Assembly (NCBI GenBank): GCA_963932905.1
Contig: CAWVRN010000004.1
Span: 144,384-208,383, forward strand
Direction: 5' to 3'
Source of the DNA: an uncultured Bdellovibrio sp.
GTDB taxonomy: Bacteria > Bdellovibrionota > Bdellovibrionia > Bdellovibrionales > Bdellovibrionaceae
DNA: 64,000 nt
Part shown: piece by piece, positions 20,322 through 44,105 of the stretch
Layout of the letters: every line of letters begins with the position of its first letter
Numbering within the stretch: the first letter of the stretch is position 1
Made by a program: the position numbers and the translations under genes
The notes under the pieces: generated by a model
What the model was told of the DNA's origin: nothing
Database searches by the model: none
What the model saw: the letters and a program-made list of their open reading frames with translations, nothing else

Positions 20322-20386
20322 TGACCTGCTCCCTTTCATGAGCCAGACTATCTTATTTTCTGGCTCGAGTTAAGGGGAGTAGGTCA
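20322..20386. mobile_element. 65-bp mini element made of two abutted IS3-family-like ends
   Basis: TGACCTGCTCCCTTTCATGAGCCAGA ... TCTGGCTCGAGTTAAGGGGAGTAGGTCA; TG...CA termini with imperfect inverted arms. Confidence 0.55.
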
Positions 20387-20393
20387 AGGCCAG

Positions 20394-20816
20394 ATCATAG
20401 ATTTGAACTGGCAGCAGGTAAATTTGGAGTCTAAAGAAGTTTCATTTCTAAGAACTTTAAAATCACAATCTCGAAAAATGAGAATATCTGACGAGTTAGT
20501 TCTAATATTAGAAAAGAGAAAAAAGACCAATGGATACGTCTTCATGACTTATTACAAAGAACCATTTACTAAGCCTAAACTAGCTCGATTGGTAAACGAA
20601 TTCAAAATCAAAACGCGTTGTGAAATCCAGTGGACTCTCATGGATCTAAGGCATTCCTTTGCTGTTAATTATCTTCGATCTGGAGGAGATATTAGAAAAC
20701 TTCAGTACTCACTAGGGCATGAAAATATATACGATACCAAGCGACTTTATTCTGAAGCGATCATCAAAGCTGATTCGAAAACAGTCGAATTAAGCCCATT
20801 TGAAATCGGATCTTAA
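20394..20816 (+). pseudogene. tyrosine recombinase, C-terminal fragment (copy 1)
   Basis: IIDLNWQQVNL...MDLRHSFAVNYLRSGGDIRKLQYSLGHENIYDTKRLY; no N-terminal binding domain; begins right after the mini-IS. Confidence 0.85.
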
Positions 20817-20920
20817 ATCGTACAATTTGCAGTGCAGGGATCACGGGCGGCCCAGGATCCGGGCCCCCATTTTTCGGGTTTAGTCGAGAATTTTGGTAAT
20901 CTTTTGGCCAAAGTTTGGCC
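20817..20920. repeat. conserved GC-rich non-coding block after the recombinase (copy 1)
   Basis: Near-identical to 24288-24391; contains GGATCACGGGCGGCCCAGGATCC and TTTTGGCCAAAGTTTGGCC. Confidence 0.85.
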
Positions 20921-20964
20921 ACGAATTTAAACAAAGTGTTTGTTTGGAAAATGCGACGCTTCGC

Positions 20965-21192
20965 TCAGCGCACTATTGGCCCTGAGGGAGAGCTTCCATT
21001 TCGCAAAAAAAAGTAAATCGAAATTGCCCCAAGAAGAACACTTGAAATTCCAAAAGCAATCCATTCCCTATTCCAAATGGACCAAAGTAAAATAATACTT
21101 ACAATAAATGAAAGGAATGAAAGAATATTTTCAATCCTTTTACGCTTTGGATTCTTGCTTTCTTCAATCGGTTTCTCCGGAACAATCTTCAT
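20965..21192 (-). CDS. putative immunity protein (2 TM) for Rhs tip A
   Basis: Small hydrophobic ORF 10 bp downstream of the Rhs-CT, with a GGTGG RBS. Confidence 0.65.
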   Translation of the reverse strand: MKIVPEKPIEESKNPKRKRIENILSFLSFIVSIILLWSIWNREWIAFGISSVLLGAISIYFFLRNGSSPSGPIVR

Positions 21193-21201
21193 ATCACCAC
21201 C

Positions 21202-21578
21202 TTATGGAATAGGAGCCATGTACAAACGTTTACATACGTAACCCATAGCTCTATAAGCAGCTACCTCAGCTGCCTTAGATACCGCAATATTAATTACAGC
21301 AATCTCCGCTTCTGTTTTTGCATCTTTTCCACACATGCCAGGTTCAAGCCCACGCGACTCCCGTTGACTTCGATCAGACTCCGCATATGCTTCTGCAGCA
21401 GCACCTCTACCTACACCTGGTGTAGCTATAGAACATAAAAAACCTGATACAGGACCGGTGCCTTCAGCATCTATAAAGTTTATCGGATCCTGCAACACAT
21501 ATCCATACAAATTCGTATCCCCACCCTCAAACAAAATCGGATCTTTACTCGTCCATCTCCCCGTCTCAGGATCATAAT
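21202..21578 (-). pseudogene. orphan Rhs core end + C-terminal toxin tip (cassette A)
   Basis: [39 protein letters not shown] followed by a unique tip ending CKRLYMAPIP. ORF-track codons upstream of 21578 are not Rhs-like. Confidence 0.85.
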
Positions 21579-21961
21579 GTCTGTATGAAGTATTGAAGCA
21601 AAATGCTTCACTTGAATGTTTCATAGTTATTTCAATATCTTCTCACTTAGATTCTGTTTTTTACAACCGCCAAATTTTTTGCATTTTGGGAATATTTTTT
21701 TAGTTTTGGCCAAAATCTGGCCAACGAAATTCGAATCCCGGTGCGCAATACTCTCAAATCTGCAGTTTTACCTATATCAATTTAGTGATCTTGGTATTCT
21801 ATGGTGATTGATACTTAAAATAATTTCTCTGTATAAAGTGGGGGCTATGTCTGACTATTAACTTTCCAAAGTGCCATTTTTAGGCTATATTGGTGCGCTA
21901 TAAGCCAATATATTGCTTTACGTTGGGTATAGCAGTTGCAATTTAAGTTTTTGGAGATTTT

Positions 21962-22171
21962 ATGACTTCACAACATGAAGAAAAAAATAAGCGTCTTGAA
22001 ATCCTTAAGCAAGAAGAGAAAATTATTTCTGAGCTGAATGACACTTCAGAACTAAGTGAACGACTTAATAAGATTAAAGAAAGTCATAACCGCAAATATT
22101 CAATTAATGACGAAGTTCAAGAAGAACCTGTTAGAAAAATTGCTATACCAGAAAACGATAATTCAATTTAA
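21962..22171 (+). CDS. small charged protein, candidate antitoxin/partner of the PIN gene
   Basis: GGAG RBS, 69 aa, ends 8 bp upstream of the PIN-domain gene. Confidence 0.5.
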   Translation: MTSQHEEKNKRLEILKQEEKIISELNDTSELSERLNKIKESHNRKYSINDEVQEEPVRKIAIPENDNSI

Positions 22172-22179
22172 GATTAACC

Positions 22180-22905
22180 ATGATATACAAAGCTCAAGAT
22201 GTACTACTCGATAGTGCTAAACGCATTCTCGTAGACTCAAATATCATCGTTGCCTATTTCGATGAAAAGCATAAGTTTCATAAAGAAGTTTTTGATAGAC
22301 TAAATCCAGTATATTTAAACGGAGCAAGTTTTTTCTATGTTCAACCATGCCTTTTAGAATTTAAGGAGTATTGGCGTAGAAAAAAACTAACAGAATGTAT
22401 TGAAGAAATGATCGGAAAAGAGTTCTATTTTTTCAGAGAGTTTCGAAAGTTATATAATAAATTTCGTACCGACAATCAAAATCAAGGTTATGAGTACTTA
22501 AGTGATCGACAAATCAAAAATCTTCGTGGCACTCTTGAAAACATACACAACAATAAAGGATTAAACTTCTGGTTCGATTTAAGCAATGTTGCATTAACAG
22601 GAACTTTATCCAACTTAGAAAATCGATTATCTAAATCGAAATTTATCTACGCCAAATTTGATGACAATAATCTTTTTCCAATATCAAACAAACCAAACTG
22701 GCCTAAGTGGATTGACGCTGATTTGGCCCAGGAAAAATTTTGTTTAGCAGCTAACGATGCGGCGATCTTGAATATGACAAACAATGCATTTAACATTGAC
22801 TCATTTATTTCAAATGACGGAGACATGCTGTTTGCGGTTAGCAACGGTGCGCTCAAACATCAAATTAATACATATACTTTTTTAGATAACTCAAACTTTA
22901 TCTGA
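22180..22905 (+). CDS. PIN-domain (VapC-like) ribonuclease with an internal insertion
   Basis: ILVDSNIIVAY..D...H, conserved E (LLEF), NDAAIL and FISNDGD: the acidic PIN signature. Confidence 0.75.
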   Translation: MIYKAQDVLLDSAKRILVDSNIIVAYFDEKHKFHKEVFDRLNPVYLNGASFFYVQPCLLEFKEYWRRKKLTECIEEMIGKEFYFFREFRKLYNKFRTDNQNQGYEYLSDRQIKNLRGTLENIHNNKGLNFWFDLSNVALTGTLSNLENRLSKSKFIYAKFDDNNLFPISNKPNWPKWIDADLAQEKFCLAANDAAILNMTNNAFNIDSFISNDGDMLFAVSNGALKHQINTYTFLDNSNFI

Positions 22906-23135
22906 ATTCTAAATAGGTATTACTATATAATTTTACTTACCTCTATTGCAAAGCTCCTGAGCATTTGGCTCATCTTTCCGGCACATGTTATCAACAGAAT
23001 CCCAGCAACCCCCTCCGTCTAAGCAAGCGTCTTTTTTCTCACAGCTAAGAGATAAAAAAATTATTGATAGCAACAAAATTTTAACTAAATTTTTGGAATG
23101 TTAAATTTCTTTCCGTTTGAATGTTTGTTAGGGAA

Positions 23136-23693
23136 TTATGAGTATGTTTTTATCCAATCATCAATTTGGTTTTGCAAATCCTTGTCTTGCCACTCAAAAT
23201 AAAAATTGCCGTCAAGGTCTTTCTTGTATTGCAAATTAGTCTTTGGCGGCACATTGCTAGTAGTGCCTTCTTTCAACTCAAGGCCAACTTTTTTAGAAAA
23301 CAAATCTGCATATGCTAAATGATCATTTGGGTAAAACCTTGTACTCGCCATTTGTTGATTGAAAAATGTGATTGTCAGAGTTCCCTTAATTCCTAAATGC
23401 TCATAGTTCTTAATTTTCCAACTCAAGATGCTAAATGCTGGCCTAGTATCTCCGTTTTCTAGTTTACTATCTTCGATGACTTCAACACTATAGTTTGCAT
23501 TTTTTAGAATGTCTTGCGCCTGAGCTGGGTTCATCAAACTAGAGAATGGATCAACTAATTCGGTCTTGATCGTAACGTTGTTTTCTGTGTAGCTAGGTCT
23601 ATAAAAATAAAATAGTGACGCCACAACAAATATAAGAAATCCCACAACAATTATTATTTTTTTATTTTTCAAAGCGATCTCCTCAGTACCCAT
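23136..23693 (-). CDS. membrane-anchored periplasmic protein, putative orphan immunity protein
   Basis: N-terminal TM; its start overlaps the end of a toxin-like remnant (ATGGGTACTGA). Confidence 0.6.
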   Translation of the reverse strand: MGTEEIALKNKKIIIVVGFLIFVVASLFYFYRPSYTENNVTIKTELVDPFSSLMNPAQAQDILKNANYSVEVIEDSKLENGDTRPAFSILSWKIKNYEHLGIKGTLTITFFNQQMASTRFYPNDHLAYADLFSKKVGLELKEGTTSNVPPKTNLQYKKDLDGNFYFEWQDKDLQNQIDDWIKTYS

Positions 23694-23810
23694 TTGAGCC
23701 CGTTACCGGCGTGGTAGTCAATATGCCATTAGTAAGTGAACTCATGCACTTCTGCGAGCAAGTTCCTGCCCCTGCAGAGTTACCTCCGTGGTAGCTTCCG
23801 GTAGCATTAT
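23683..23810 (-). pseudogene. 3' remnant of a probable toxin tip
   Basis: Open frame NATGSYHGGNSAGAGTCSQKCMSSLTNGILTTTPVTGSNGY* overlapping the next gene start; cut off by recombinase copy 2. Confidence 0.45.
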
Positions 23811-24287
23811 TATTTCTATCCAATTCTAAAAATATTTTCAGAATCTGGAGCAAAGCTCTGCGAAATCATCGATTTAAATTGGCAACAAGTAGATCTGGAA
23901 AATAAAGAAATAACATTTCCTAGAACCATCAAATCGCAATCTCGGAAAATAAAGATTTCAGACGAACTAACTTCAATTCTAGAAAAGAAGAAAGAAGTAA
24001 CTGGATATGTTTTTAAAACTTATTATAACGAGGCGTTCAGCAAACCTAAACTGGCCCGACTGGTTAACGAATTTAAAATCAAAACAAAATGTGAAATTAA
24101 ATGGACGTTGATGGATCTAAGACATTCTTTTGCTGTTAACTTTCTTCGCTCGGGTGGAGACATTAGAAAGCTTCAGTACTTAATGGGGCACGACAACATT
24201 TACGATACAAGGCGCCTATACGCAGGTGCTGTCGCAAAAACAGACTCGCAAGTGGACACTTTAAATCCGTTTGAAATCGGGTCCTGA
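23811..24287 (+). pseudogene. tyrosine recombinase, C-terminal fragment (copy 2)
   Basis: Manual translation YFYPILKIFSESGAKLCEIIDLNWQQVDL...MDLRHSFAVNFLRSGGDIRKLQYLMGHDNIYDTRRLY...NPFEIGS*. No start codon; in-frame stop at 23802; colinear with copy 1. Confidence 0.85.
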
Positions 24288-24391
24288 ATCGTACAATTCG
24301 CAGCGCCAGGATCACGGGCGGCCCAGTATCCGGGCCCCCATTTTTTGGGTTTAATAAAGAATTTTGGTAAACTTTTGGCCAAAGTTTGGCC
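24288..24391. repeat. conserved GC-rich non-coding block after the recombinase (copy 2)
   Basis: Near-identical to 20817-20920. Confidence 0.85.
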
Positions 24392-24458
24392 TCGGATTTT
24401 GAAGTAATAAAGCTATTTTTAAAAATAGCTTTATTACGTGCGCTCACTATGGCTCAGT

Positions 24459-24764
24459 CTAGTGGATCACAGAGTTTGGCGGTTGCTTGATATCCGGAAT
24501 TTTATATATTCCAAAACCAATTAACAATACTCCAACAAAACAAAGTACATAGCCCAATATTTTTTCATAATGAATTAGTTCATCGGCACCACCACCAATT
24601 TTTTGAACTATATCCAGACTTGCAAGTATTGGAAAAAATAGAAGTATGCCTCCGCAAAGACCAACAACAATTCCTAAAAATATTAATTTTAGTCCACCCT
24701 GACTTTTATTTTTAAAGTTTTCTATATTATCAATTTGCGGTTTTGGAGGCACAATCTGATTCAT
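24459..24764 (-). CDS. putative immunity protein (2 TM)
   Basis: ATG 24764 behind an AGGAGA RBS; follows a decayed toxin tip. Confidence 0.6.
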   Translation of the reverse strand: MNQIVPPKPQIDNIENFKNKSQGGLKLIFLGIVVGLCGGILLFFPILASLDIVQKIGGGADELIHYEKILGYVLCFVGVLLIGFGIYKIPDIKQPPNSVIH

Positions 24765-24772
24765 AAATTCTC

Positions 24773-25002
24773 CTATGGTGTGAAAGGGCTTAACATCAAA
24801 GCAAGACATGCCTTATAACCAAATTTATCAATGGCATATCTAGTTGCTCCAGTTGCGGCAGACTACGCCGCTAGCTTACCAACCTTTCTCATAAATCCTG
24901 CTTTAACCGTATCATCGATATGATCGATGATACGAATCAACACTTACACGAAATCTATCGAGGGTTGCCTATCGACTAAGAGTGCCGGTCTCGTGCTCCA
25001 TA
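24773..25002 (-). pseudogene. decayed Rhs tip (cassette A')
   Basis: Starts YGARD then degenerates; 3' frame ...KLAA*SAATGATRYAIDKFGYKACLALMLSPFTP* has an internal stop. Confidence 0.55.
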
Positions 25003-25035
25003 GCTCCTAACGGCCGTTTCTGGCCGTCAAAAATT
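25003..25035. repeat. collapsed cassette linker
   Basis: GCTCCTAACGGCCGTTTCTGGCCGTCAAAAATT: the first ACGGCCG box is fused directly to the hairpin. Confidence 0.7.
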
Positions 25036-25098
25036 AGGGACTACAAAGCTTTAGTTAACAACTATCACAACTGGTTTTATGCTTGCTTCCTTCTTAAA

Positions 25099-25224
25099 CT
25101 ACTTTTCTTCTGCAAGAATTTGCTGATCAGAATTTTTATAAAAACAAGATTTAACCACTACTGTAATGGCAATAGTGGTAACAAAAATAAGTGCATATAT
25201 GATAATTTTTTTCTTACTACTCAA
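25099..25224 (-). CDS. 41-aa single-TM putative immunity peptide for tip B
   Basis: Manual ORF with TTG start and GGGAG RBS: MSSKKKIIIYALIFVTTIAITVVVKSCFYKNSDQQILAEEK. Confidence 0.5.
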   Translation of the reverse strand: MSSKKKIIIYALIFVTTIAITVVVKSCFYKNSDQQILAEEK

Positions 25225-25276
25225 GCACACTCCCTTTCCAAAAATATTCTTACAACCTATATTATAACTAATTTAT

Positions 25277-25639
25277 CTATGCGGGACATTTATTAATTGG
25301 CTTTGGACGTCCAGGCCGAGGAAATCGATCTGGTTGTCTTGTTTTAGGAAGCCTCTCAATTTGTGTTGGGGGACCATTGATAAATTCATCCCATCTAAGC
25401 CTCCACTTTAAGGTGTAAGTCATTGGATCTTTAAAATAATCAACTAATTCCTCACCAATTAGAAGCCCGGTCCCAACAACTATAGGAACTATAATAAATG
25501 GATTCAGCCCACTCGGATCTGTAAAGTTCACAGGATCGTTCCAAGTATAACCGTAGAGATTAGTATCAGCACCTTCAAACAAAATGGGATCCTAGCTCGT
25601 CCATCTCCCCGTCTCAGGATCATAATTCCTGGCACCAAA
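25277..25639 (-). pseudogene. orphan Rhs core end + toxin tip (cassette B)
   Basis: [43 protein letters not shown] then a unique tip; TAG at the Lys codon. Confidence 0.85.
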
Positions 25640-25713
25640 GCCTCTAACGGCCGTATCACAACACAATATTTTCAAACTCAAAAAAGAAAACGGCCGATCT
25701 CGGCCGCTAAAAA
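25640..25713. repeat. cassette linker (CGGCCG x3, hairpin)
   Basis: GCCTCTAACGGCCGTATC...AAAACGGCCG-ATCT-CGGCCGCTAAAAA. Confidence 0.85.
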
Positions 25714-25752
25714 TAATTTTGATACTAATTGCTTTAACTATTTTAAAAGAAA

Positions 25753-26175
25753 TTATTGGAGTCTATTTAAAACAAAAACAACTACCAAAGAAACAACAAA
25801 AACAAATCCAATAGCTATAGCAACCAAAACAAAGGGATGTACTCCTAATCGATCTATCTTATATCCCTGATTGTTATAATTTCTAATTAAACCTACTAAA
25901 CGCTCCCGGGCACTTTTTCCTCCAGCATTCCAGATATCATCACTTTGAGCCTGCACTATAAATTTTGTTTTATTTGGATATTTTACCCATGAGACCCGTA
26001 CCTTAACACGCTGAAAACCATACTTTACTACGCCCTCAAAAAAGTGTTCCTGCTCATTACTAATTTTTCCTAATTTCTGAAGGGCGGCCTTAGCTACTTG
26101 CAAACTTGTTGCAAAGTCTTGTTGAGTCTCCACTTCTCCATTTCCTAAATCTACAAAATCCATATTCATCCCCAT
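25753..26175 (-). CDS. putative immunity protein (C-terminal TM) for tip C
   Basis: Starts 6 bp after the toxin stop. Confidence 0.65.
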   Translation of the reverse strand: MGMNMDFVDLGNGEVETQQDFATSLQVAKAALQKLGKISNEQEHFFEGVVKYGFQRVKVRVSWVKYPNKTKFIVQAQSDDIWNAGGKSARERLVGLIRNYNNQGYKIDRLGVHPFVLVAIAIGFVFVVSLVVVFVLNRLQ

Positions 26176-26180
26176 TCAAA

Positions 26181-26543
26181 TTATTTGTCTAATATTTGAT
26201 CGATGTTGCTTTTACCATCATCAATGATAATAGGTAAAAGTACCTGACCCGCACCTATAGCAGCACCAAGCGCGGCACCCGCTATCATCCCTGGGCCAGA
26301 GCCAGCCGGCAAACACATACCAACCGTCGCTCCAGTAACTCCGCCAATTACAGCCCCTTTAAACGCTCCTTTTCCTGCATCTAATATATCTCTAGAGGTT
26401 ATTTTCCTCAACCCATCTGGATCAATAAAATTCACCGGGTCCTGTAGCACATACCCATACAAATTCGTATCCCCACCAGCAAACCCAATCGGATCCTTCG
26501 AAGTCCACCGTCCAACCTCAGGATCATAATCCCTGGCTCCGAA
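26181..26543 (-). pseudogene. orphan Rhs core end + glycine-zipper tip (cassette C)
   Basis: [44 protein letters not shown] followed by GAxxG-rich helices. Confidence 0.85.
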
Positions 26544-26659
26544 GCCCCTAACGGCCGTATCTCCTTAAGGAAAATCGAACTGGAAAATTAAAACGGCCGC
26601 TTTCGCGGCCGTTTTAATTATTTATGCATCAACTATCTTAACTGACTCCGATAGACTAG
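26544..26659. repeat. cassette linker (CGGCCG x3, hairpin)
   Basis: GCCCCTAACGGCCGTATC...AATTAAAACGGCCGC-TTTC-GCGGCCGTTTTAATT...ATCAACTATCTT...CTAG. Confidence 0.9.
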
Positions 26660-26672
26660 AATTTAAATTGCA

Positions 26673-26963
26673 TTAGAATATTTCCTTTTCTAAGAATAAA
26701 AATAAGAGACTAACAGCAGTCGCACTAATCATTATTAGATAGCCTAAATAATACAATTTTTTCATTTCTGGAGTCATTTCTCTTGCTCCAAAACTTACCC
26801 AATTGCCTTTTTTGAGAATCGAAATTTTAGCCCTGAAAAACAGTACAAAACCAACAATGAAAATCAGTGCTAACTGCACTCTAAAATTTAGTGAAAGCAA
26901 GGCGCCACAAATCAAAGGTCCATAAAAAATTGCTGCGTTAAATTTAGCTGACTGTGGGCCCAT
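26673..26963 (-). CDS. putative membrane immunity protein for tip D
   Basis: AGGAGA RBS, three hydrophobic segments, starts 12 bp after the toxin stop. Confidence 0.65.
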   Translation of the reverse strand: MGPQSAKFNAAIFYGPLICGALLSLNFRVQLALIFIVGFVLFFRAKISILKKGNWVSFGAREMTPEMKKLYYLGYLIMISATAVSLLFLFLEKEIF

Positions 26964-26974
26964 ATTTTCTCCTT

Positions 26975-27379
26975 TTATATTCCTGGAACTGGGGGAACTG
27001 TATTACCCGGATTAACCATGCCACATCGGTATCCAGCACCTGCGACGCCTTTCCAACCACCGTAGCTACTGATAAGCGAATAATTTTTATCGTACTCATC
27101 ATATAAGGGATCATTTAATTTATCTGCCTCGCATTTTCCCTTAGTAAGCTCATTGTACTTTATTTTAGTGTATAAGACAGCATTTCTGGCCGTCAATGCC
27201 GCAACCAAGGCATAATTATTAATTGACCCAATAACCATACAAAGCTTTCCATCTGGGTCGATATTATTCACCGGATCCTGCAAAACATATCCATACAAAT
27301 TCGTATCTCCACCCTCAAACAGTATGGGATCTTTCGAAGTCCACCGCCCCGTCTCAGGATCATAAGCCCTGACTCCAAA
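26975..27379 (-). pseudogene. orphan Rhs core end + toxin tip (cassette D)
   Basis: [44 protein letters not shown] then a unique tip. Confidence 0.85.
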
Positions 27380-27493
27380 GCCACTAACGGCCGTATCTCA
27401 TTCAGGAAAATCGAACCGCAAAATTAAAACGGCCGCGTTTGCGGCCGGAGAACTACTTAGGTATCAACTATCTTGATTGGCTCCGTGGCCTAG
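27380..27493. repeat. cassette linker (CGGCCG x3, hairpin)
   Basis: GCCACTAACGGCCGTATC...AAAACGGCCGC-GTTT-GCGGCCG...ATCAACTATCTT...CTAG; alignable with 26544-26659 over its whole length. Confidence 0.9.
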
Positions 27494-27666
27494 TTTTGTT
27501 TCTCAATAGCTGGTGCTATTTTAATCTTATCTCTTAGCTCTCTTTCTGTTTTATCTGTCCTATTAAAATAAAAAGCTTTAAGTAATGCGAAAAAGAAAAC
27601 CAGCAGGCAGAATATCCATATCCACAATCGTTCATTTTTTTTAAAACTATTTAAAAGCCTTCTCAA
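27490..27666 (-). CDS. 58-aa single-TM putative immunity peptide for tip E
   Basis: Manual ORF; TTG overlaps the toxin [46 protein letters not shown]...EKQN. Confidence 0.55.
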
Positions 27667-28043
27667 GAATTCTCTCCCCCATGATAGCTGTTAGGATACC
27701 CTTTTGGCGGTCTAAGTCTATGCCATTTAGGCATCGGAGTAGATTTTATTTTTTTAGGAACAGGACAGGTTCCAAAGTTTCTCGAATCGTTCTCTATTTC
27801 GTTAAACTCACCTTCGCCAAAATTATCTCCCAAAATTGTTCCAATGTAGTCTCCTAAAAAATATATTCCAGGTAAGATAATAGGTGCCAATATCGGCCCA
27901 ACGGCTGCTTTCCCCTCAGGATCAATTAAATTCACCGGATCCTGCAACACATATCCATACAAATTAGTATCACCGCCATTAAATAAAATAGGATCTTTCG
28001 AAGTCCATCGACCAGTCTCAGGATCATAATCACGGCCGCCGAA
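27663..28043 (-). pseudogene. orphan Rhs core end + toxin tip (cassette E)
   Basis: [44 protein letters not shown] then a hydrophobic tip. Confidence 0.85.
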
Positions 28044-28118
28044 GCCCCTAAGGGCCGTATCCCGATACAACAATTCCAAAACTCACAAAATAAAAACGGC
28101 CGTTTTCGGCCGTTAAAA
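28044..28118. repeat. cassette linker (hairpin; first box variant AGGGCCG)
   Basis: GCCCCTAAGGGCCGTATC...AAAAACGGCCG-TTTT-CGGCCGTTAAAA. Confidence 0.85.
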
Positions 28119-28177
28119 ATAATATTCGAAATCAACAATTACTTTTATATTCTTGGGCCACGAAAACTCACTAAAAA

Positions 28178-28651
28178 CTAATTCTTAAAATTTATATTTT
28201 CAAAAACTGAAGTTAGCTGATGCTTTTCCAGTTCGCCCTTGTCTTTTTCATCGGCAACAAATTGCATTTTCTTCGCTTCTTCGAATAATGGTTGAATCTT
28301 CTCCAACTGATTTGGCGAATTGTTTCGCTGATTCTCTCTGGCGACCTCTATACCTTCGTAAAACAGCCACACTTCAATAGTAGGAATTTCTTTTTGAGGT
28401 ACAGTTTTGTAAATTTGCTTCGCCTTTTCTATATCCTGCTTGACGCAAAGGCCTCTGGCGTAGAAAGACGCAAACAAATATGCTGCCTCATTGGAAAGAT
28501 AGACAGCACGTTTAGTATTTTCGAAACTTTCGCAATACTCACCGTCTTCAAACTCATGCCTGCCTTTTTCTTCAAAATGAGAATACGTAAGTCTATAAAC
28601 TACGAATAAGCTAAAAAGCGAAATTACAGTGCCTATTATAATTTTTATCAT
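28178..28651 (-). CDS. Sel1-repeat-like membrane-anchored immunity protein
   Basis: N-terminal TM; EAAYLFASFYARGLCVKQDIEKAKQIY resembles a Sel1 repeat; TAATG overlap with the Rhs stop. Confidence 0.7.
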   Translation of the reverse strand: MIKIIIGTVISLFSLFVVYRLTYSHFEEKGRHEFEDGEYCESFENTKRAVYLSNEAAYLFASFYARGLCVKQDIEKAKQIYKTVPQKEIPTIEVWLFYEGIEVARENQRNNSPNQLEKIQPLFEEAKKMQFVADEKDKGELEKHQLTSVFENINFKN

Positions 28652-30300
28652 TATAGTCCTACCTCAATTGTATTATTTCCGTCCTCTGCACCCAACAGAT
28701 TATTTATATTACTTAAATCTGTTTCTGATGAGTTTGGATCTCCTGTTATGCAACCATTGGAGCCACCTTTCCTCAAGTGTAATAAAAAGTCTCCACCGTT
28801 TTGTCCTAGTTTAAATCCAATTCTAGAAAATAATCCAGGATCTAAAAACCAATCTCCAGTCTTTAAGCCTGGTAGCTTCCTAATATCATAAGTGCCTATT
28901 GGGATTGGACCTAAAGGAGAACCAGTTGCAGATGGTTTATTTTTAAAGGTTCCGGCGCCACTAAACATCTGCGACATGTAAGAAGTAGCACCATCATTAC
29001 TAGTACAATTTAGTTTACCACTAGTAATTGAGTAGCTACATTTCGCCAACCCCATCGGATCAATATAACTCATCGGGTCCCCGCCGACATACGCATACAA
29101 ATTCGTATCCCCACCCTCAAACAAAATCGGATCTTTACTCGTCCATCTCCCCGTCTCAGGATCATAATCCCTCGCCCCAAACCGAACCAATTTCGTGCTC
29201 CAATCGGCTAGCCCCCCGGCAAAGCCAATTGCCAGCTCGCCGCTTCGATTGTCTTGTAAAACTTTTCCAAATTCATCGTATTCAATTCTTTGAATTATGG
29301 ATCCGTCACTGCCCTTTACTACCATCACCGGGCTGCCCAATAAATCTGTAACTATTTTGTAATTTACGCCGGCTTCTATATAGTAATCAGGCGCATGGGA
29401 TTTCGTTGCGTAAACGTATCTTCGTTTTAAACTTCCGTCGGCATTTAGTTCGGCAACTAAACGACTCTGTTCCCATAAATAGCGTCTAACAACCACCCCG
29501 TTTATCTTGCGACTGACTCTTCTGTTTAGTCCATCAATATCGTAGTTGATTAACGTTCCATTTTCTAACTTGACTTGAGTTAAATTCCCGAGCGTATCAT
29601 AGACGTAACTGGCCGTTTGATTGAGCACCGTATTTGTTTTGCTTTGTAGCTCTCCGTCCGCGTTATAGGCAAAGGTGCTAGATCCAAAGCTAGACAGACG
29701 ATCTTGCGTGTCATATGCCGCTGCCGTCGTGCTGGGTGGGCTTGCGATCTGTGCAGAGGTTCTATTCCCGTTATCATCATAGGTATATTTTCTGATCCAC
29801 ACCGATGATAAATATTGGATTTCCTTTAGGCGGCCGCGATTATCATAAATATATTTATAGGCTTTAGTTGGCCAACCGCTGACTGTGTAGGATCGAGTCA
29901 AAATACGTCCCAGATTATCGCGCGTCAGGGTTTCGCTATACAGATTGGCGCTTCCGCTTACAACTGTCCGCCCAGTGATTTCTGCAAAATTATTTGTCGT
30001 AATGTTTTCATCAATCAAACCAAGCGTGGTCTTGTTCAATATTCCATTCGGAGCAGATGAATAAAATAAGTTTAAACTTCCGGCTTGGGTCAGTTGTTCA
30101 TCATCGTTATAGACATAAGGCAGAGTTTCAATTGCCCCCGCGCCCACCTTTAATTCAAAGCTAGATAGTTTTCCTTCTGATGCAAAATACTTTTTACTAT
30201 AAGCCGTGACACTGCCGTGCTCAAACGACTCTTTACTGACATAGTCTCCTAAATACTCATACCTTGTTACAATACCACTTGGTCCGGTGACACTAGATAT
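28651..30300 (-). pseudogene. rhs: 5'-truncated Rhs/YD-repeat protein with a Tlde1/DUF2778-like toxin tip
   Basis: YD repeats, core motif ...DPMSYIDPMG, tip with GPIPIGTY and FLLHLRKGGSNGCI. The frame stays open upstream of the GTG at 30147 up to 30300, where an in-frame TGA and a repeat cut it. Confidence 0.88.
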
Positions 30301-30302
30301 TC

Positions 30303-30596: not shown

Positions 30597-31787
30597 TCAG
30601 AAATTGTTGGTGGCGCCAGCATCCTTTCTCTCTCCTGGTTTGCCCGGGCTCTCATCCTGAAACAGAGTTGTATATCGTTTACGAATCCCCAAGTTGTATC
30701 CAAACCTGAGTCCAACACGCAGATTGTTATACGCTGAAAGGTCCTTTACTTGGTCCCGAATTGTCTGAAAAGCGAGACCGTATAACGGCTTCAAATCCTC
30801 TCTCGTCTGATTAAGGGAGCCTCCCACAAAGGTCTGTACAATAATTGATCTAGTAGTGTTTGAGTTATTAGAAAACGTGTTGTCCGTCACGCTCGTTAGG
30901 TTAAATTTTCCAGTGGATTCCATCTTGTTCCGAATATCTAACAAAGTTGCGATATCTGGATTCCTTTTGACCGCTGTAAAGCTCCATAGTCCTACTAGTA
31001 TAATAACTGCGGAAACAGCTCCAGCAATGGCTATTGCCTTTTTTGTTTTCGCTGGATCGTCTAAAGAGGCCAAGGCCGTTGCATTAAATCGATCATGGTA
31101 CACAACAATCGAGTTAGCTATGAGATCGTGGAGTCCGCGCTTCAGCGGGTGTAGCGGCAAAAACAAATAGCAGCCAACAACTCCAATGAACCACATCGTA
31201 CCAATAATGGAATCGGCCGTCGTAGAAAGCTCTGAGCCCACTAACAAATTGACGACGCCAGAAAAGACGCCGATGTATCCAACGAAGGCGATGATCAGAT
31301 ATCTCAAGAAAGATTTAACCAGAGAAAGGGGTTCGCCATTCATATTCAAAACCTGAATACCCAAAATTCGCTTACCGAGGCTTTGGCCGTTACCGAAGCT
31401 ACTTTGCGAAGGTACAAAATATGCGATTGATACTAGTAGCCCAAGCCACACGCCATGCTCGCCCAGCTTCACAAACAAGTCCTCCAGTCCAAAACTGAGC
31501 ACCATCGCGAAAGTCCAGAGAATTGCTAAATCGATGACATCGGCAACGACTCTTATCCAAAACCCAACAACCAGTTTTGGCACCTGGCTTTCCACAGGCG
31601 GAGTTATTTGAACTTCGTTCCACAACCCTTTTTCCTTCCGTGTCTTAATTTCAACTAGGCACGCTTCATAGTTTGCTGGGAACTTATCTTTATTTATTCT
31701 ACCCAAAGAGGCAATAAGTTCGCCTTGAGGTAACGTCGAGAAGTCTATAGTGCTACTAGTTTTTTCGTCCGTCAATTTCTCTCCCAT
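30597..31787 (-). CDS. RDD-family membrane protein
   Basis: GFWIRVVADVID, GQSLGKRILGIQV, RGLHDLIANSIVV. Confidence 0.85.
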   Translation of the reverse strand: MGEKLTDEKTSSTIDFSTLPQGELIASLGRINKDKFPANYEACLVEIKTRKEKGLWNEVQITPPVESQVPKLVVGFWIRVVADVIDLAILWTFAMVLSFGLEDLFVKLGEHGVWLGLLVSIAYFVPSQSSFGNGQSLGKRILGIQVLNMNGEPLSLVKSFLRYLIIAFVGYIGVFSGVVNLLVGSELSTTADSIIGTMWFIGVVGCYLFLPLHPLKRGLHDLIANSIVVYHDRFNATALASLDDPAKTKKAIAIAGAVSAVIILVGLWSFTAVKRNPDIATLLDIRNKMESTGKFNLTSVTDNTFSNNSNTTRSIIVQTFVGGSLNQTREDLKPLYGLAFQTIRDQVKDLSAYNNLRVGLRFGYNLGIRKRYTTLFQDESPGKPGERKDAGATNNF

Positions 31788-34460: not shown

Positions 34461-35360
34461 ATGAGCGGATATTGGACAGACACAGCTTCTTTCATCGATG
34501 CGCATCTGGGCACTGGAGGCGCCGTCTGTGTGGCCCTGATTGACGACGAGATGGCTGCCCATAACGTGCCTTTCACAAGCGTGACCTGCCTTTATCAGGG
34601 CAACTGGCTTGATGGCGGCACGTTCAAGTGGGACACAGCGGCCGTAACACGATGCCAATTACCCGTGCCGCAGTACGCGATCGTCGGCGTCAATGGACAG
34701 GTGCAGTTTGTGGGCAGTGGCGACATGCACGAAGAACGCATCGCCGAGGGTGTGCTTGCCCCCCCGGCGGGCACAGGTCTGGTGCGCGGCGCACGCGCCA
34801 TCGAAGGTGTGCTCTATGTGTGCGGGATGAAGCGACAGGTCTTCCGCCGCGAAGGGCGCGAACAGTGGCGCTGTCTCACTGCTGCAATTCCTCAGGAACG
34901 GGGCGTTGTAGGTTTCGAGGCCATCGATGGCTACACCCACAGCGAGATCTATGCCGTTGGCTGGGAGGGGGAGGTCTGGCATTTCGATGGCACGAATTGG
35001 AACCAGTACGATACGGGTACCAATGTCATTCTCCTAGATGTGGTGTGTGCAGGTGACGGCATCGTGTATGCGATCGGCCGAGGACGCAAACTGGTCATTG
35101 GGCGCGGTGCCCAGTGGCGCACCATCGACCTGAACCTGTCGGTCGAGCTGTCAAGCATCGCCTGGTTTGAAGGCAAGCTCTACGCCTGCTCGACGCGAGA
35201 TATCTTTGTGTGGGACGGCTCGCTATTCAACCCTTTGGTGATTGAGGGTGACCGGCCTCGCACCATCCAATATCTGAATTCTGGCGAAGGCGGTTTGTGC
35301 GCTGTAGGGCCTAAAGATCTCTTCCGCTTCGATGGGTCGACCTGGTTCAGGATCGATTGA
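34461..35360 (+). CDS. beta-propeller-like (WD40/BNR-type) hypothetical protein, high GC
   Basis: ATG 34461 behind GAAGG; repeats such as IYAVG..GEVWHFDGTNW and LFRFDGSTW. Confidence 0.7.
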   Translation: MSGYWTDTASFIDAHLGTGGAVCVALIDDEMAAHNVPFTSVTCLYQGNWLDGGTFKWDTAAVTRCQLPVPQYAIVGVNGQVQFVGSGDMHEERIAEGVLAPPAGTGLVRGARAIEGVLYVCGMKRQVFRREGREQWRCLTAAIPQERGVVGFEAIDGYTHSEIYAVGWEGEVWHFDGTNWNQYDTGTNVILLDVVCAGDGIVYAIGRGRKLVIGRGAQWRTIDLNLSVELSSIAWFEGKLYACSTRDIFVWDGSLFNPLVIEGDRPRTIQYLNSGEGGLCAVGPKDLFRFDGSTWFRID

Positions 35361-35507
35361 GGGTCTGGCTGGAACCACGAGGCACCCCACCTCGAAATAG
35401 AGACGGCAATATTATTTTCCCTGGCTTATTTGAAATATTGATCTTATTTCTTATTTTTTTTCGCCAGAGAAAACGCTGTCTCCACGAACTCTAAAGAAAA
35501 AGAACTA

Positions 35508-44029: not shown

Positions 44030-44105
44030 GACCTCATAGCTCAACTGGATAGAGCAGTCGTTTCCTAAACGATCGATCCCCGTTCAAGTCGGGGTGAGGT
44101 CACCA
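44030..44105 (+). tRNA. tRNA-Arg (anticodon CCT)
   Basis: Acceptor stem GACCTCA/TGAGGTC, D arm GCTC/GAGC, anticodon loop TTCCTAA, T loop GTTCAAG, encoded CCA. Confidence 0.95.

Follow-up and report, generated by a model that had tools for sequence, protein, structure and literature searches.

Integrons hold co-oriented cassettes between repeated sites, with one lone site beside the integrase and expression of the first cassette; the integrase is encoded at the 5' end and is divergent from the cassettes, attI lies beside it, and the attC sites form imperfect hairpins when single-stranded. In shufflons and tail-fibre invertases, site-specific recombination inside a gene swaps C-terminal ends by inverting opposed segments, and RIT elements are composed of three tandem tyrosine recombinases. 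The locus described here, an array of Rhs toxin tips and immunity genes with two fragments of a tyrosine recombinase gene, is located in a stretch of 64,000 nt from an uncultured Bdellovibrio sp. (GenBank assembly GCA_963932905.1, contig CAWVRN010000004.1, positions 144,384 to 208,383), referred to below as the window. For Rhs genes, the available part of Jackson et al. 2009 (PMC2935791) describes a main rhs gene followed by co-oriented dissociated tips with core pieces of varying length, and proposes homologous recombination with circular intermediates. In the accessible text (10.1101/471110), a rAID-1 locus is defined as two or more co-directional genes of low GC content with a XerD-like recombinase at their 5' end, which must share at least 44% identity with that of the B. 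fragilis reference. Polyimmunity loci next to XerC/D-like recombinases, enzymes that were proposed to aid the accumulation of conflict genes, are mentioned in the excerpts available from Zhang et al. 2012 (PMC3482391).

An original prediction, made from the letters of the window and its open reading frames (ORFs), held that a recombinase and dedicated sites may capture, store or swap whole toxin tips at this locus. From the comparative analysis reported here it appears probable, though not strongly so, that the window contains a dead Rhs tip/immunity array which was visited at least twice by a family of mobile elements specialised for Rhs arrays, and that the recombinases of these elements join sites and move cassettes.

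Recombinase genes linked to Rhs arrays

The array occupies about 20.4-30.3 kb on the minus strand; all coordinates refer to the whole 64,000-nt stretch. ORF lists, Pfam/NCBIfam searches and repeat finding, on which the features are based, revealed one Rhs gene together with seven modules of tip and immunity gene in the same orientation, of which two are decayed, and thereby confirmed this part of the original prediction. Read along the minus strand, the truncated Rhs gene with its tip and immunity gene is followed by four modules of one kind (type C) and a decayed module. Then come a candidate site called ATT, a terminator and recombinase fragment 2, followed by a tip remnant with a YdcD-like immunity gene. 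Two ORFs on the plus strand separate these from a second part, consisting of ATT, a leader, orphan 6 and an immunity ORF, and finally of ATT, a terminator and recombinase fragment 1.

The two recombinase fragments, both on the plus strand and therefore convergent with the array, belong to a protein designated RecC. Fragment 1 (20376-20813) covers residues 198-343 and fragment 2 (23811-24284) residues 186-343 of the 343-aa recombinase; a weaker HMMER match with four stops extends fragment 2 back to 23661. They are 73% identical at the amino acid level, both lack the N-terminal half, and both match Phage_integrase (PF00589, tyrosine recombinase) above cut-off, as do the full-length relatives. 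No full-length copy of the recombinase was detected in the 4.55-Mb genome. A single-protein scan of a collection of genome contigs yielded just two records, that of the query itself and an unrelated one. Since truncation affects the main Rhs gene as well as both recombinases, and the genome has no intact recombinase left, the earlier view of this copy as a relic holds, and only the immunity genes could still matter.

Full-length relatives are 66-73% identical across the stretch covered by the window's fragment. This family, whose two recombinases are designated RecB and RecC, was found in 18 of the 390 genomes searched within the class, and a metagenome scan gave ten true family loci, including two duplicates of loci from the genomes. 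In 15 of the 28 loci outside the window, the last recombinase gene is followed at 0.08-3.3 kb by a Rhs core end, and the two are convergent in all 15. Restricting the count to loci with 1.5 kb or more of sequence on the downstream side left 17, of which 12 were positive. A sample of the phylum contained RecB relatives in 19 of 401 genomes; among the 20 phylum loci, convergent Rhs ends were clear in 11 and weak in one, while seven showed none, three of these on contigs of 4.4 kb or less. The predicted link of the recombinase to Rhs arrays is thus present for its intact homologues, and, judged from gene neighbourhoods, the specific tie of the recombinase family to Rhs tip arrays is real.

Recombinase and Rhs tips could also be neighbours merely through a common ancestral island, with no functional link between them. 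Many loci do come from related genomes, and the arrangement may in part be inherited. Yet it persists with RecC identity down to about 28-45%, across backbones, tips, several families and classes, and its orientation is constant in the 15 positive loci. Moreover, in genome G000 other weak recombinase-like matches (contigs C15, C14, C30 and C6) are found apart from other Rhs-like genes (contigs C3, C44, C1 and C11). Shared ancestry without function is therefore regarded as extremely improbable.

At loci L013 and L014, the recombinase genes are part of an operon consisting of a Mom-like gene with an excisionase-like helix-turn-helix (HTH) tail, RecB and RecC. The Mom-like gene (L013:10239-11480, L014:10789-11811) fuses a DNA-modification domain (PF25680, phrog_1384) to the excisionase-like HTH tail. 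A MobC/Replic_Relax gene is located upstream, separate from the operon. In a variant, L049, a primase, a helicase and a small excisionase-like protein are encoded instead, the latter being an 89-aa HTH protein alone. A RIT element was considered for the gene trio and dropped, because its first gene is Mom-like with an HTH and specifies no recombinase.

The catalytic domain of tyrosine recombinases is marked by the residues R..H-x-x-R..H..Y; RecB is a canonical Xer-like protein in which the motifs HTGARR, HS(F/L)RHSF, GH and LYG are kept. In RecC, all seven sequences, including L013:8177-9208 and L014:12839-13867, have Lys at the position of the first catalytic Arg (Arg-I), as aligned with the catalytic Arg of XerA; Arg-II, His and Tyr are retained. 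On these residues, RecC may be a non-catalytic or altered partner of RecB. In G315, a 650-aa ORF (L048:12465-14417) separates RecC from the immunity gene that belongs to a leader-type orphan, indicating that the elements can hold extra cargo at the cassette position. A conserved ORF of 268-269 aa without known family is common to the elements in two genomes of different families (L057:11473-12279 and L056:14250-15059).

Candidate recombination sites

In five loci of the two-recombinase family, the RecC stop codon is followed by a common terminator and then by a block ending TTTTGGCCAAAnTTTGGCCACGAA, after which homology stops. This block, ATT, is composed of GGCC-N7-GGCC, a 15-nt palindromic core, and a conserved flank of about 45 nt, and measures about 60-100 nt overall. 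Three copies are present in the window on the minus strand, one beside each recombinase fragment and one upstream of orphan 6. Copy a1 together with the GC terminator of fragment 1 spans 20850-20955, and copy a2 (GGCCAAACTTTGGCC and the conserved flank) with the GC terminator of fragment 2 spans 24321-24427. Orphan 6 is preceded, at a distance of about 150 nt, by copy b (GGCCAGATTTTGGCC and flank, 21660-21756). The original prediction had noted convergent recombinase fragments, each with a conserved GC-rich block. Both are present, but the block itself is the terminator of the recombinase gene, recognisable as a terminator-like GC hairpin after each fragment (20849-20865 and 24320-24336).

An ATT profile detected no copies elsewhere in the genome at E<0.03. 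Applied to 349 kb of loci, it gave 23 matches, 15 of which are training sequences, and GGCC-N7-GGC[CTA] is kept in 20 of the 23. Matches other than the training sequences are placed at successive cassette borders in L076 (three), L053 (three to four), L189 (six) and L188 (two), the last two loci coming from another class. Where it was found with leader-type orphans, which have their own start codon, the block recurs 150-162 nt upstream of them. About 11 of these orphans depart from Rhs at the same codon, Rhs homology being joined at Y|DP (the bar marks the junction). As ATT bounds the recombinase backbone as well as leader-type cassettes, the site-bounded unit would consist of leader, core end, tip and immunity gene. 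In L014 and L188, copies of ATT flank the backbone as direct repeats, and in L053 serial insertion was again followed by decay.

Two further candidates for sites were rejected. The repeat finder indicated a 'pseudo core end' overlapping the RecC stop codon, which is not significant (E 0.3-3; 8 of 300 shuffles equal); possibly it is what remains of a lone site like that in the single-recombinase arrays described next. Attachment of the tRNA type was considered because the string TTCGAATCCCGG near 21730 resembles the 3' end of a tRNA, and was dropped, as ARAGORN predicted only a tRNA-Arg at 44030.

In other classes, a lone RecB relative is located at the distal end of arrays with one to eight or nine orphans (L194, L195, L197, L198 and L200). 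Every orphan of these single-recombinase arrays departs from Rhs at the codons for R-x-Y|D/N-P, and a short leader is common to all. One additional copy of leader plus junction stands alone 42-213 nt from the recombinase stop codon. It matches over 23-29 of 30 nt, and in each of the five loci none of 300 shuffles was as good. In alignments with the orphans, this lone copy is similar as far as the junction and dissimilar beyond it; for the main gene, the similarity begins only at the junction. If O denotes the site, the series is Rhs-O-core end, leader-O-core end (repeated) and leader-O-terminal flank; such an att-like pattern would be expected from the integration of circles. One genome contains two arrays of this kind, which have in common the Rhs core up to the core end and, at the other end, everything between the lone site and the end of the recombinase gene. 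Their cassettes, five in one array and one in the other, are mutually unrelated.

These arrangements bear on a more modest explanation, according to which ordinary integrative mobilisable elements, with an attachment site that happens to fall in Rhs spacers, use these as a safe place and move only themselves, the tips accruing by homologous recombination with incoming DNA, which displaces the old tip. The MobC-like or primase/helicase modules and the excisionase-like gene are what such elements should hold, and the direct repeats of ATT around the backbone in L014 and L188 fit equally well. Type-C modules need no recombinase and occur in genome G008, in which none was found. In addition, a 75-nt exact repeat shared by the core ends of the main Rhs gene (29093-29168) and orphan 6 (21504-21579) is enough for homologous exchange, and homologous recombination with circular intermediates is what was proposed in the available part of Jackson et al. 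2009 (PMC2935791). On the other hand, ATT is also located between cassettes without any backbone (L076, L189 and L053), and the single-recombinase arrays show the lone junction copy; in L197, the only one of them in which the ORFs beside the recombinase were read, no mobility genes were present among these. The orphans also break at one fixed codon, unlike the varying core lengths of the classical arrays as given in the available text (PMC2935791). Elements that move only themselves are therefore considered a rather unlikely explanation.

The type-C linker and other features of the array

Five modules had been predicted to follow a conserved non-coding linker, and this linker was taken for the dedicated site. 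Four full copies and one partial copy were indeed found, but part of the linker is not of non-coding origin. In each copy, a hairpin and its T-run are followed by about 30 nt and then by 12 codons of the Rhs core, which lead into the core end. Three of the hairpins have terminator-like scores (28095-28114, 27430-27447 and 25689-25708), and the spacing from GGCC to GGCC is 6 or 8 nt. As predicted, the linker is not dispersed over the genome, since an nhmmer profile gave no other copy in the 4.55 Mb at E<0.07. Seven of 181 other genomes of the family showed matches, and only G008, of the same genus, contains a true copy, located after a full Rhs tip and its immunity gene; no recombinase of the RecB/RecC family was found in G008. 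The matches in G123 and G084 are generic terminators corresponding to the hairpin part. For the four weakest matches (19-24 nt), neither Rhs nor recombinase matches were detected in their 3-kb loci.

That the linker is the site of the adjacent recombinase could be argued from its confinement to the array within the genome, from its GGCC-bearing palindrome, which resembles ATT, and from the copy in the same position in G008. However, the ATT profile does not match the type-C linkers, the hairpins have N6/N8 spacers with T-runs and score as terminators, generic terminators of other genomes match the linker, and the one true copy elsewhere occurs in a genome in which the recombinase was not found. 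This part of the original prediction is thus very improbable and was abandoned. The linker is a terminator hairpin of the usual kind joined to 12 residual codons of the Rhs core, and no relation to the site that accompanies the recombinase was detected. The type-C modules form a separate layer, which may have originated by homologous exchange between like arrays or from an older, decayed type of site. Gaps and joints in Logan contigs were tried as signs of strain variation at the linkers and set aside as too weak (26812-28981 uncovered in run X2; joints 25661/28078 and 26507/29158 with 12 foreign letters).

The main Rhs gene has the YD/RHS repeats, the core domain with a DPxGL-type motif and the variable tip of Rhs/YD-repeat polymorphic toxins. 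Its frame is open from 30300 to 28654 on the minus strand, and the ORF starts with GTG at 30147 and specifies 498 aa (28651-30147). This product is above the cut-offs for RHS_repeat (PF05593), TEN_YD-shell (PF25023) and Rhs_assc_core (TIGR03696). It can be aligned only to residues 846-1261 of a relative of 1358 aa. The gene is therefore 5'-truncated, with the N-terminal approximately 845 residues, or two thirds, gone. What is left (28651-30300, minus strand) consists of the end of the YD-shell, the core end (29128-29163) and a tip resembling Tlde1 at 28.3 bits, under the Pfam cut-off of 30.1. A putative immunity gene of this tip (28178-28651, minus strand, 157 aa) was taken from the ORF list. 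It has no family match in the Pfam search, and ORFs with 27-29% identity to it follow homologous tips in L048 and L079.

Exactly where Rhs homology ends, at 30302, contigs of runs X2 and X3 depart from the sequence of the window, and a full-length Rhs gene may still be present in related strains. A gene for an RDD-family membrane protein (30597-31787) is located directly upstream of the truncated Rhs gene on the same strand and was not found in nine other genomes of the genus. Outside the array, the GC content shows a sharp peak at 34500-35500 (0.62 and 0.52, compared with about 0.40 around it). In genomes of the same genus, the genes of the left flank are conserved and have neither Rhs nor recombinase genes beside them. 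The gene of the right flank was not found in these genomes, so that no empty-site comparison could be made.

Five orphans on the minus strand (27663-28079, 26975-27397, 26181-26564, 25277-25621 and 21202-21624) share the core end DPE(T/V)GRWTSKDP and continue into unrelated tips, each with a small ORF after it. The first four are the type-C orphans, all of which begin 12 codons before Y|DP. Their modules (25625-28180, minus strand) each consist of linker, core end, unrelated tip and small ORF. Orphan 4 (25277-25621) contains an in-frame TAG within the conserved WTSKDP motif (WTS*DP, 25586-25621). Orphan 6 starts from an ATG of its own, with a leader unrelated to Rhs ahead of the core end, and with an ORF for a 75-aa protein with a transmembrane (TM) segment it forms the leader-type cassette at 20965-21624 on the minus strand.

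Both decayed modules are also on the minus strand. One (24459-25047) retains the partial linker (24992-25047, nhmmer E 0.075), in which homology ends just short of the core end, and a 116-aa TM ORF (24459-24809). The other (23136-23853) consists of a tip remnant (23683-23853) and a YdcD-family immunity gene (23136-23693, 185 aa). Judged by eye, the remnant looks like the end of the DUF6973 tip of L014, and the immunity gene is 30% identical to the immunity ORF of that locus. Because identity to the L014 counterpart is only 30%, the idea that this module is cargo travelling with the element was dropped. Two ORFs of 69 and 241 aa (21962-22905, plus strand, from the ORF list) lie inside a decayed element and belong to no known family. 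Neither has a Pfam match, and the larger one also lacks NCBIfam and PHROG matches. Across this region, the GC content falls to 0.31-0.34.

Interpretation and comparison with known systems

In the explanation favoured here, visits by Rhs-specific mobile elements, the intact elements of relatives carry, in this order, a MobC-like replication-relaxation gene (or primase and helicase), the Mom-like/HTH gene or an HTH gene alone, RecB and RecC, the 3' end of RecC facing the 3' end of an immunity gene. We infer that the recombinases act on the sites and move cassettes: they would join ATT sites and in this way insert or excise, as circles, the tip/immunity cassettes as well as their own backbone. 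The main Rhs gene would then receive a stored tip by homologous recombination through the core end, about 75-140 nt. In the single-recombinase relatives, the site is part of the reading frame at R-x-Y|D/N-P, where an inserted cassette would bring its tip into frame with the Rhs gene. Applied to the window, RecC fragment 2 with its ATT is read as the scar of one element, whose interior was deleted up to the tip remnant, and fragment 1 with its ATT the scar of a second one.

Several observations weigh against this explanation. No recombination product or event was observed. No downstream core end was found in L052, L063, L077, L082 and L083, although 1.5 kb or more of sequence was available on that side in all of them (tblastn gave only a distant Rhs-like match in L077), and the Rhs genes in L190 are oriented in the same way as the recombinases. 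Related genomes are not independent samples, and kinship inflates the counts given above. The ATT copies flanking a single element have unlike spacers, for example AAACTTT and AGATTTT, a difference not expected between two sites that a simple tyrosine recombinase would pair. Beside RecC, no significant lone in-frame site was detected; the best candidate matched over 19 of 30 nt and was equalled by 8 of 300 shuffles, with nhmmer E values of 0.3-3. The ATT profile gave no match to the four type-C linkers, which make up most of the array, and this linker recurs in G008, where the recombinase was not found. Finally, contigs of runs X1 and X4, from two studies, connect 21504 to 29093 ('goes back 7590'), the order of a circle or a tandem copy. 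If real, this joint points to homologous rather than site-specific exchange; it was discounted as evidence because contigs assembled from short words cannot resolve the 75-nt exact repeat.

Taken as a whole, the original interpretation is partly supported. The notion of a capture system receives strong comparative support from the linkage of the recombinase and from the att-like site patterns in related arrays; the linker as the site did not stand. A more specific proposal can be put forward tentatively, with the case for it not quite evenly balanced: that Bdellovibrionota possess a 'Rhs integron', in which a Xer-like recombinase inserts circular tip/immunity cassettes at a site of 20-27 nt within the conserved R-x-Y|D/N-P codons of the Rhs core end. 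The newest tip would be fused in frame to the toxin shell and older ones pushed down the array, while a mobilisable version with RecB and RecC, the Mom-like/excisionase gene and MobC would spread cassettes between genomes.

The acquisition and exchange of tips of Rhs and other polymorphic toxins have so far been explained only through homologous recombination with hypothetical circular intermediates. A phylum-wide, Rhs-tied recombinase family would change this picture, as would the definition of candidate sites and the existence of arrays in which as many as eight or nine tips are stored. Together they offer a concrete, testable mechanism of enzyme and site, an integron-like capture of weapons rather than of resistance or immunity genes, and RecB/RecC together with the sites could serve as a marker for tip reservoirs in genomes and metagenomes. 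If the proposal is true, it would provide the enzymatic basis of the tip exchange by circular intermediates that the available part of the 2009 paper proposed (PMC2935791). In the titles and abstract openings of the literature searched, no account tying Rhs tips to a site-specific recombinase was apparent. On our reading, the arrays represent an integron-like tip-cassette system for which no earlier description was found.

Comparison with described systems reveals partial similarities to several of them. As in Rhs displacement arrays, insofar as they are covered by the text available (PMC2935791), the tips are co-oriented, and each has a core piece, an unrelated toxin end and an immunity gene; the window, with its downstream co-oriented core remnants, unrelated tips and immunity genes, can be classed among the Rhs C-terminal displacement arrays. 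Core remnants of varying length, a trait of homologous crossover, are not seen, since type-C orphans start alike and leader-type orphans all break at Y|DP. One fixed break codon, non-Rhs leaders, a repeated site and a recombinase at the end of the array distinguish the loci studied here from the displacement arrays of that text. The rAID-1 loci of Bacteroidales, in the parts of the sources available (10.1101/471110, PMC12247911), have a 5', co-directional recombinase and immunity genes only. Here, in a different phylum, the recombinase is 3' and convergent, an orientation that excludes the array from rAID-1, and the cassettes are toxin tips with a Rhs core end plus immunity genes. The polyimmunity loci of Zhang et al. 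2012 (PMC3482391) likewise concern immunity genes; in the excerpts available, the word 'recombinase' appears twice and is never tied to toxin cassettes. Alternative C-terminal ends are shared with shufflons and tail-fibre invertases, but all segments are direct in the arrays described here, and exchange would need excision and insertion. With integrons they have in common co-oriented cassettes, repeated bounding sites and one lone site beside the recombinase. They differ from them in the type of enzyme, RecB and RecC scoring 76 and 53.5 bits with the integron-integrase model TIGR02249 (cut-off 265), in the distal and convergent position of the recombinase at all 15 positive loci, and in the placement of the site within the reading frame in the single-recombinase arrays.

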